Below, piece by piece: positions 58,102 to 60,723 of a stretch of DNA of 64,000 nt. Position 1 is the first letter of the stretch, and each line of letters begins with the position of its first letter. The DNA is from Callorhinchus milii (Eukaryota), in contig NW_024704768.1 in assembly GCF_018977255.1 (NCBI RefSeq), positions 2,790,001-2,854,000 of the forward strand, read 5' to 3'. The translations under genes were made by a program, and so were the position numbers. The notes below the pieces were generated by a model, which saw only the letters and a list, made by a program, of their open reading frames with translations, was not told the origin of the DNA and did not search any database.

Positions 58102-58824
58102 CATTCCCTTCTCTTTTCCAACAGTGTCGCGGGATTTTTAAAGCCCACGGATTAGGAATTTTTTCAGGCGGGACTTGAAAAGGGGAGAGAGTGGGGGTGG
58201 GGGGCAAGACGGTCGGATTGAGGGAGAGTGTTCCAGAGTTTCGGGGCGCGACCTCCGACGGTGGAGCGAGGGAGTGAGGAGGTTGGAGAGGTAGGGAGGT
58301 GCCAGGGAGTGAAGGGACGGCACCTCTGACCAGGTAGCAGTCACTCTGCCACACGGTAATAACAGTAATAAGAATAATAATTATACTCGCATTCGACACA
58401 GCGCCTGATCACGTCTTCGAGACGTCTCGAAGCGCTTCACGGGACACACACGCGCGCGCGCGGTCAAGGGAATCGTACTGCGGATCTTGCGAGCGAAACG
58501 AAAGCCACTTAACGAGAATTTGCCGGCGGTTCGGAAAAAGGTCAAATCAAACGAGCGGCCGACCTTTTGGATGAAGGATGCGAATTGGTTGTTCAAGCCT
58601 TTAATCTGCTCCTTCTCCTGGACGCGGGAGTCCTGGAACGCCGAGAAGGACAGGTGGGGCTCGTAGCTCACGCTGACACCCATCGACGGCCTGACGGCCA
58701 AGAGGTTCGCACCCCCTCGGGAGAAACCCGACGACTGGGAGGAGAAACTCAACCGCTTGTTGCCCGAGGTGGGCACGAGAGAACGGCTGCTGCTGGACAT
58801 GTAGCTGGTGCTGCGTCTTGACAT
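51473..58824 (-). CDS. Divergent type II keratin, copy D; intact, 431 aa
   Basis: Exons: 58824-58564 (261), 57820-57612 (209), 56231-56171 (61), 55463-55368 (96), 54901-54737 (165), 53825-53700 (126), 53130-52910 (221), 52173-52133 (41), 51588-51473 (116); total 1296 nt in frame. Motifs [58 protein letters not shown]; tail [11 protein letters not shown]. Confidence 0.93.
51620..51735. repeat. Degenerate ~12-bp minisatellite (agatcacaa/agatctcac units) in the last intron of copy D
   Basis: Repeated AGATC-ACA/TCAC units are visible directly. Confidence 0.5.
53245..53598 (-). mobile_element. tRNA-derived SINE in intron 6 of copy D
   Basis: accactgagctac head; central gggttcctacttactgc; tail tgcatttga. 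Confidence 0.8.
54240..54655 (+). mobile_element. L2 3' fragment in intron 5 of copy D
   Basis: [20 protein letters not shown]2 tail with TTG repeats. Confidence 0.8.
55060..55300 (+). mobile_element. L2 RT fragment in intron 4 of copy D
   Basis: [38 protein letters not shown]. Confidence 0.8.
56730..57092 (+). mobile_element. CR1 3' fragment in intron 2 of copy D
   Basis: Homologous to 8900-9265 ([15 protein letters not shown]). Confidence 0.75.
57125..57502 (-). mobile_element. tRNA-derived SINE in intron 2 of copy D
   Basis: Homologous to the long subfamily. Confidence 0.75.
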
Positions 58825-59072
58825 GGTTTTTTTTTTTCCTTTCTCTTCCCCTAAAAGAAACACACGAACCTGACCCAAAAAAAAACCTCAAAAGCTCTTC
58901 CCCCGAAAGAAATATTTCCAGGAAACGATCCAACAAAGTTTTTGTTCCGAAAGAAATCAAACAACACAACACAAAACAAAAGTTGGTCCAAGTCGGGTGG
59001 TGGTGGGGGGGGGAGGGTTTTGCGTGTGTGCCCCGAAGCTACTGAGGTTGGCAAGGGTTGGCGTGTGAGCTG

Positions 59073-59186
59073 TTTATACCTGTTCTTATCACCTCCAATT
59101 GGCCTCAGGGGGTGTCAGATTGCCTTTCAAGCCATATTATTGGTCTCTACTGTTCGACCAATGGATGTTCTCTGGAGGCTATAAAA
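59073..59186. promoter_or_regulatory. Candidate bidirectional core promoter between copy D and the type I keratin
   Basis: Minus-strand TATAAA (tttata 59073-59078) and plus-strand TATAAAA (59180-59186). Palindromic CCAATTGG 59095-59102, ATTGG 59139-59143, CCAAT 59158-59162, GATA site cttatc 59085-59090. Inr-like TCAGT on each side (59206-59210 +, 59045-59041 -). Confidence 0.65.
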
Positions 59187-59361
59187 TTACAGCCTTTCCT
59201 TCCTCTCAGTTTCACTTGTGTTCAAAGTCAGCAGAAGGTTTGCGACTTGTCCAAAACTCTTTCCCCCCCAGAGCTATCTGTCGAGGTTTAGATCCAAGTC
59301 CTCTCTCTAGTCAACCAACTCAACCCTCCTCCCAAACCCTCGACCAGACCATCCTCTAACG

Positions 59362-60723
59362 ATGAGTTTCGAAGTGAGGAACTTCTCAAGCGTGAGCTCT
59401 CGGAATCCCAGGCAGTTAGGTAGTGTGTGGCGCTCAGCCCCTTTGTACGCTGCCAGTGTCCATGGAGGGGGCTTTGGCAATAGGATCTCGGTGTCCCGGG
59501 GCTTTGGGGCTGGTGCCCTAGGCGCGAGTGGGGGTGTGGGAGCCTCTAGGATCCTGAGCAACGAGAAGGAGACCATGCAAGACCTGAACGAGCGTCTGTC
59601 CGCCTACCTGGAGAAGGTCCGCCAGCTGGAGGCTGCCAACAACCACCTGGAAATCGAGATCAAGAAGATCCTCGAGGTCAAGGGTAGCTGCGATCGGAAC
59701 TGGAATGAACAGGAGGACATTCTCAGCAAACTTCGCCAACAGGTCATTTTTTGTTGTTGTTGCAAGCTCTTGCCTTTCCCCCTTTCCCCCAACCCTCTCT
59801 ACACCCCCCCCCACACCCCCCAAAAAAAACTTCTCACTTCCCCCAAATCCCTGAACCCCTTTCTCTCTCTCTCTCTCTCTCTCTCAACTTCCATTACCTT
59901 CACAGTTTGGCTTCTCAGTAATTGTTGACAGTAATTATTATTATTCTTGTTGCTATGAATATAATATTTGCATTTTAATCCCTTCGGACATAATTATTGA
60001 TAATGATAAATGCAGTCGCGCTCTCTCCCACGGCTGCTTTGAGGTTGGCCGCCCGCGTTTCGCCCACGGCGCGCACGCACGCACGCACGGCTTAATCCGC
60101 TTTACGGTGTATCCTGCGCCGTTGAGGCGTTCCGAAGCCGTGATAAGGCGCCGCATCAAATGCGGTGATTATTATTATTTAATATCGCTGCGGCACGGGC
60201 AGCCTTCTCGCGAACGCGGGCCGTCGAGCGGAAGGAGAACTCACAGAGGCAGCGGAAGAGGCTGAGAGGTTTGGCCCGATCTGTCTCACCCCCCCCCGCG
60301 CCCCCCCCCCACCCCCGCCGCCATCACCCCGACTCCCATCCCATCTCTCCCCTTCCCAATCCCACTGAGCAAATCCAACCACTCGTCTGCCCACTCTCTC
60401 CCCCCCCCCCCCGGCAGGCGCCAGGCACCGCGAGATAGCTCTGTGGGGTTTCTCTCCCCCTCCCCACTACCTGCAAAACACTGAGTGTCTGTTGTTTCCG
60501 TCGATTGGGACAGGTTTTTGAGATGATAGTGGAGAACGCCAACCTGGACCTGCAGATCGATAATGCTCAACTGGCTGCTAACGACTTCAAAATCAAGTGA
60601 GTATTTACTTGTCCTTTCACTCGCCTCTCTCTCTCTCTCGCTCTCCCTCCCTCTCCTCTCATATTTCTCCCCTCTTTCAATCTCTCTCTCTCTCTCTCTC
60701 TCGCTCTCTCTCCCTTTTTGTTC

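Follow-up and report, generated by a model that had tools for sequence, protein, structure and literature searches.

In the elephant shark, Callorhinchus milii, the type I keratin gene krt18 and a krt8-like type II keratin gene lie head to head and likely share one small divergent promoter. This reading is drawn from the anatomy of the gap between the two genes, together with spliced transcript contigs in which no upstream exon is seen. The window analyzed here is a stretch of 64,000 nucleotides at positions 2790001-2854000 of contig C27 of the assembly (NW_024704768.1), and the coordinates given below are those of the window unless a contig is named. Gene identity, orientation, synteny, the presence of the motifs and the splicing of both first introns are established, and these are presented first.

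The krt18 gene (59362..64000, plus strand) has eight coding exons and encodes 416 amino acids, its last exon extending about 34 bases beyond the end of the window. The krt8-like gene, annotated as krt8 (51473..58824, minus strand), has nine coding exons and encodes 431 amino acids. Our exon models are identical to the annotated C. milii K18 (NP_001279820.1) and K8 (XP_042200290.1), and coding exon 1 of the krt8-like gene model (58564..58824, minus strand) is also covered by a contig from run X1. The two start codons, at 59362 on the plus strand and at 58824 on the minus strand, are separated by 537 bp. Two alternative UniRef models, P0001 and P0004, differ from RefSeq, the K18 being without part of coil 2B and the K8 having another exon 4; both look like mispredictions.

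The type I gene is the K18 ortholog, based on its identity to NP_001279820.1, on its grouping with shark and ray K18 (support 0.99 in a tree of 37 of the 126 proteins), and on the length of exon 4, which is 165 nt as in KRT18. The exon sizes 83/157/165/126 match those of human KRT18. The type I keratins from contigs C29 (one gene) and C8, the two present in the tree, group apart from K18. Three type I keratin genes were located at C29:3035000-3069000, two of them convergent and closely similar, and one more was located at C8:21054800-21059700; these genes are outside both main keratin clusters.

Along contig C27, five type II keratin genes are followed by the single type I gene krt18. An exon encoding the RRM of eIF4B was found at C27:2885798-2886022 (plus strand, E=5e-15), 32 kb downstream of krt18 and on the same strand; the scan was made on the eif4b side only and covered the first 146 of 342 right-flank ORFs, minus one within krt18, plus four long ORFs. 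The gene order is the mammalian one (type II cluster, KRT8, KRT18, EIF4B), with the pair at the eif4b end of cluster 2. The eif4b flank is seen here, whereas Kimura & Nikaido, working with an older assembly, give the elephant shark cluster 2 without it.

The same authors (bioRxiv 10.1101/2020.05.06.063123) report krt18 and krt8 head to head from lamprey to tetrapods, elephant shark included. The genes found here correspond to the krt18.1/krt8 pair of keratin cluster 2 by name, orientation, location at the end of the type II cluster and eif4b flank. An earlier note on this DNA had taken the pair for a dedicated, operon-like module; these are, however, the annotated krt8 and krt18 genes, and their head-to-head layout in the elephant shark was already in print. 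The words "promoter", "distance" and "intergenic" are absent from the main text of Kimura & Nikaido, and the short gap may be readable from the gene locations in their supplements. The statement that the mammalian genes are tens of kb apart proved correct: between the KRT8 and KRT18 start codons, dog has 28,404 bp, horse 29,890 bp and human 22.7 or 44 kb (PMC5573215, supplement 8), where the elephant shark has 537 bp.

The type II partner is the KRT8 counterpart by position. By sequence, it appears to be a divergent K8-like paralog of the shark lineage and is not clearly a 1:1 ortholog of the bony-vertebrate K8, and in this it differs from the krt8 of cluster 2. Its rod is 49-50% identical to the turtle and mudskipper K8, against 67-70% for the rod of a neighboring type II gene (start codon at 41411, minus strand). 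In a tree of 22 sequences, the krt8-like protein groups with a sawshark K8-like protein (99.7/100) on a long branch; because this grouping is firm, the lineage is older than the chimaera/shark split. The branch is about 3.5 times that of the sawshark relative (0.61 vs 0.17), and the head of the protein is short and poor in glycine, coil 2A is altered, and the rod-end motifs are intact. Branch length, head and coil 2A suggest that the gene evolved faster in the chimaera line. In topology tests with 18 sequences, the AU test rejected an exclusive grouping with the bony-vertebrate cluster-2 keratins (p=0.012), whereas the SH (0.063) and KH (0.058) tests did not; the data were compatible with a grouping that takes in every cluster-2 gene (0.33) and with one that joins the protein to the second K8-like lineage (0.81). 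The 209-nt exon 2 was dropped as a marker of K8, since the neighboring gene shares it.

Three near-identical tandem type II keratin genes have start codons on the minus strand at 41411, 24999 and 16618, with promoters that are also near-identical (GATAAAA, CCAAT). They correspond to either a recent triplication or an assembly artifact. With promoters of their own, these three neighbors resemble canonical K8, as judged by sequence comparison, more than the annotated krt8 does. The proposal of a dedicated pair is weakened by these neighbors and by the divergence of the krt8-like gene itself. The far end of the cluster is occupied by a fifth, divergent type II keratin gene, which is oppositely oriented (C27:2783400-2787618, plus strand) and has TATA and CCAAT elements of its own. 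A second C. milii K8-like protein, P0162 (XP_007884463.1), groups with squamate, milkfish and horn shark K8-like proteins (97/99) and had no match in the whole assembly. Similarly, no second krt18 was found when the assembly was searched for one as an internal control (subcluster 4 pair); the subcluster 4 locus may be absent from this assembly.

The motifs described in the earlier note (start codons, TATA pair, the palindrome CCAATTGG, CCAAT, GATA and TCAGT) were all found in place and are above chance in shuffled sequences. On the krt18 side, a TATA box (TATAAAA, 59180..59186, plus strand) is followed by an initiator, TCAGTTT, matching YYANWYY (59206..59212, plus strand), with a predicted start at 59208, 28 nt from the TATA box. 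The krt18 5′ UTR predicted from motifs and contigs (59208..59361, plus strand) is 154 nt long with no upstream ATG. The TATA box facing the krt8-like gene, TATAAA(C) (59073..59078, minus strand), is the weaker of the two. An Inr-like TCAGT had been claimed for each side, and both copies are present, but the minus-side copy (59041..59045, minus strand) lies 35 nt from its TATA box and matches BBCABW without matching YYANWYY. A plain CA, 29 nt from the TATA box, provides an alternative start on this side (predicted 59049, against 59043 for the TCAGT). Based on TATA spacing and on X1 contig cover with no loose end, the predicted krt8-like 5′ UTR (58825..59049, minus strand) is about 220 nt long with no upstream ATG. 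The predicted starts of the two genes are about 160 bp apart. From these motifs, the krt18 core (TATAAAA and TCAGTTT at 28 nt) is predicted to be stronger than the krt8-like core (TATAAAC and TCAGT at 35 nt).

The TATA-to-TATA span is 114 bp inclusive, with 101 bp between the boxes, which leaves no space for separate proximal promoters. This stretch contains a candidate GATA site (TGATAA, 59086..59091, minus strand) and the sequence GGGGTGT (59109..59115, plus strand), which we take to be a KLF/SP-like site, both assigned by motif match only. It also contains two boxes that agree with the NF-Y consensus RRCCAATVR (PMC11676430). The first, GACCAATAA (59137..59145, minus strand, CCAAT at 59143-59139), is directed towards the krt8-like gene and the second, GACCAATGG (59156..59164, plus strand, CCAAT at 59158-59162), towards krt18 at about -50; two such boxes are observed where 0.019 would be expected per 101 bp. 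The palindrome CCAATTGG (59095..59102) does read CCAAT on both strands, as had been claimed, but it departs from the NF-Y consensus on both (one mismatch on the minus strand, a poor match on the plus strand) and is a weaker site than the other two. A same-sense CCAAT is located 22-24 bp upstream of each TATA box. At the sequence level, the gap carries orientation-independent sites enriched for NF-Y/CCAAT. Typical bidirectional promoters are TATA-less and coincide with a GC-rich CpG island (PMC11676430); the gap departs from this typical, though not defining, profile, having two TATA boxes, a GC content of 46%, a core CpG o/e of 0.22 and no CpG island.

The interval was compared with 20,000 dinucleotide shuffles of itself, the pattern having been defined after the sequence had been inspected. 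An outward TATA pair was obtained with p=0.008, and at least four CCAAT with p=0.028 in the interval and p=0.0002 in the 101-bp core. The combination of an outward TATA pair with at least three CCAAT between the boxes occurred in 0 of the 20,000 shuffles. Moreover, 81 outward TATA pairs with a spacing of 40-250 bp were counted in 434,846 bases, and the krt18/krt8-like pair is the only one with at least two CCAAT between the boxes. A survey of keratin promoters covered ten positions; two belong to this pair and one is without an ATG, leaving seven for comparison. All seven have a TATA-like box 62-223 nt upstream of the ATG, and three have a CCAAT upstream of that box. With TATA boxes standard on keratin genes, two outward TATA boxes are expected from any back-to-back keratin genes, and the distinctive feature is the 101-bp spacing, filled with CCAAT, not the TATA boxes themselves. 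For the same reason (TATA in 7/7 and CCAAT in 3/7 of the other genes), the motifs alone do not demonstrate sharing.

No repeat match was found in the 537-bp interval, in agreement with the earlier note, but the point is a weak one since 11.5% of 537-bp windows are likewise repeat-free; the repeat-free gap was dropped as a sign of constraint. An inverted duplication of the core was also considered. The inverted self-similarity is weak (p=0.024) and driven by the motifs themselves, and it was not counted.

Contigs from eight of the 13 listed runs were used (X5 and X10-X13 were left out); all runs are from one organism, and nine of the 13 are guessed to be RNA. Such contigs show presence, not absence or level, and are unable to map starts or to rank the genes. 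The junction of krt18 exon 1 to exon 2 was found in contigs of seven of the eight runs. For the krt8-like gene, the loose end of an X1 contig matches exon 2, so that run X1 holds spliced contigs of both genes. Exon 1 of krt18 is covered in 8/8 runs and that of the krt8-like gene in X1 only, a difference from which neither absence nor level can be read in contigs. Distant upstream non-coding exons had been named as an observation that would argue against a shared promoter; in the contigs of the eight runs, no upstream exon was seen for either gene and no contig had a loose 5′ end.

The krt18 contigs start at 59214, 59227, 59228, 59287, 59303, 59327 and 59410. The first three of these starts, which come from two studies and have no loose end, give a weak hint of a krt18 start near 59208. 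In addition, an X1 contig (58828-59744) that splices into krt18 exon 2 bridges the whole core, which means that the putative promoter is covered by some RNA or DNA. This contig can be explained by rare upstream starts, by overlapping 5′ ends or by DNA, and is no proof of a single transcript. The X1 haplotype differs from the assembly at eight places in the gap (six substitutions and two insertions), none of them in 59035-59242, which includes the stretch between the predicted starts; this sparing of the start-to-start stretch is weak evidence (p=0.052). The oligo-capped 5′-ESTs made by Tan 2012 could map the starts, and the main text of that study gives none for keratins (PMC3466250).

In the reading that we favor as reasonably probable, both genes are licensed by a single open region kept by NF-Y, and krt18 receives the larger share of the output. 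Two ordinary TATA-type keratin cores would stand back to back, with starts near 59208 (plus strand) and 59049/59043 (minus strand), and would draw on a common stretch of about 100 bp that holds the CCAAT (NF-Y), GATA and KLF-like sites. Binding of NF-Y to both consensus boxes would hold open a single nucleosome-free region feeding both cores, the opening of which would license both genes. Because of its better TATA box and initiator, krt18 is predicted to have the higher output of the two, and gene-specific enhancers would tune each gene. The filament would reach its 1:1 ratio at a later step, as unpaired chains are degraded, with K18 presumably also pairing with the three K8-like neighbors. 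The layout fits a published model in which two unidirectional cores, spaced by about 110 bp, use common orientation-independent factor sites (PMC6360817), and NF-Y is among the factors enriched at bidirectional promoters (PMC10887517). In mammals, K18 and K8 have their own intragenic enhancers or control elements (PMC10052683), and a single human enhancer near KRT18 serves both KRT8 and KRT18 (PMC7039683).

The closest likeness is to the Mrps12-Sarsm promoter, where four CCAAT boxes in less than 200 bp are bound by NF-Y and output has a 4-fold bias to one side (PMC1802594). Both gaps have less than 200 bp between divergent genes, four CCAAT readings, and strong as well as weak boxes. Mrps12-Sarsm, however, is TATA-less, with its boxes on one strand and serving housekeeping genes, while the krt18/krt8-like gap has two TATA boxes, CCAAT boxes on both strands and tissue-type structural genes. 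The col4a1/col4a2 genes, 108 bp apart in medaka, likewise encode obligate partners of one heteromer and run outward from the short stretch between them. The COL4A1/A2 promoter is TATA-less, and H2A/H2B pairs often have two TATA boxes. Histone pairs resemble the keratin pair as partners of one complex expressed from a short divergent gap, and medaka histone promoters carry TATA, CCAAT and NF-Y motifs (PMC11676430). Keratins differ from collagens and histones in that their pairing is promiscuous and their balance is reached by degradation (PMC2132680). The medaka list of 1,737 divergent pairs gave no match for "krt" or "keratin", a search that unnamed LOC genes would escape.

Two independent promoters packed together by genome compaction would account for part of the same data, and we regard this as a possibility of rather low probability. 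Here, the CCAAT boxes would serve mainly krt18, and the krt8-like gene would use its own enhancers or another start, possibly one overlapping the 5′ end of krt18. The presence of TATA-like boxes on all seven other keratin genes, the weaker core on the minus side and the X1 contig that bridges the core are consistent with this. So are the regulation of mammalian K18 by an intron 1 enhancer and of K8 by intragenic elements (PMC10052683), and the finding that, within a given medaka tissue, 45-61% of the divergent pairs with less than 1 kb between them show expression on one side only (PMC11676430). Against it, the TATA boxes are just 101 bp apart and factor sites of this kind work in both orientations (PMC6360817), while one consensus box, and the palindrome in its better reading, face the krt8-like gene. 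In addition, no AP-1 site was found in the first intron of either gene, unlike the mammalian K18 enhancer.

The earlier note had gone further than a shared promoter, which we find likely, to an operon-like module in which a dedicated type I/type II pair, with no other partners, is locked into co-expression and an approximately 1:1 output. This second part is poorly supported, and a promoter fixing the krt18/krt8-like stoichiometry is unlikely. The layout is near-symmetrical, with CCAAT, TATA and TCAGT on each side (its self-similarity being the weak, motif-driven signal above), the products belong by family to the two obligate partner classes, run X1 has both genes spliced, and col4a1/col4a2 offer a precedent. 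But the two cores are unequal, and the best-studied CCAAT-array promoter is itself biased 4-fold (PMC1802594). In mouse, K8 and K18 become equimolar by degradation of the unpaired chain, from independently regulated mRNAs (PMC2132680). Close co-expression is also seen between distant genes: human KRT8 and KRT18 correlate across tissues (rho 0.89) though far apart, and KRT6A and KRT16 correlate at 0.83 from different chromosomes (PMC8733776). Moreover, exclusivity is at odds with three other type II genes of the cluster, which by sequence stand nearer to K8 than the krt8-like gene does.

NF-Y occupancy of closely spaced boxes may be sterically limited, and the two consensus boxes stand back to back with centers 19 bp apart. 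A competitive switch, in which NF-Y on one of the two boxes makes each allele fire one way at a time and GATA occupancy beside the minus-strand TATA box tips the choice in some cell types, has parallels in the mutually exclusive, one-direction-per-box binding suggested for Mrps12-Sarsm (PMC1802594) and in the 100-bp TATA-based bidirectional switches of Ly49 (PMC10887517), but it is very improbable here, the predicted starts, about 160 bp apart, being beyond the 60-bp limit for polymerase clash (PMC10887517) and partners of one filament gaining nothing obvious from alternation.

The head-to-head arrangement, the class of promoter and the expression of complex partners from a short divergent promoter are all already known. 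The 537-bp gap of the krt18/krt8 pair appears not to have been described before; our literature search, which did not extend to most subscription journals, including older shark keratin work, returned no paper on a bidirectional keratin promoter. If active as predicted, the element could double as a compact epithelial dual-expression promoter.

That KRT18, a type I gene, has remained within the type II cluster throughout the vertebrates is described as unexplained (PMC8733776), and Kimura & Nikaido merely note the conserved krt18/krt8 layout. The 114-bp two-TATA element is a small and directly testable candidate cause of this retention. It is conceivable, though we think it improbable, that the founding keratin pair of vertebrates already had this compact, CCAAT-filled promoter with two TATA boxes, and that cartilaginous fishes have kept it for more than 400 million years. 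Such an origin would account for krt18 having stayed in the type II cluster; the mammalian gap of 28-44 kb would then mark the loss of the partner gene or an expansion of the gap, and canonical KRT8 would descend from the next gene along. Should the gap also be short in sharks, rays and lampreys, the shared promoter would be an ancestral tether, whereas a short gap in the chimaera alone would make it a by-product of a compact locus.
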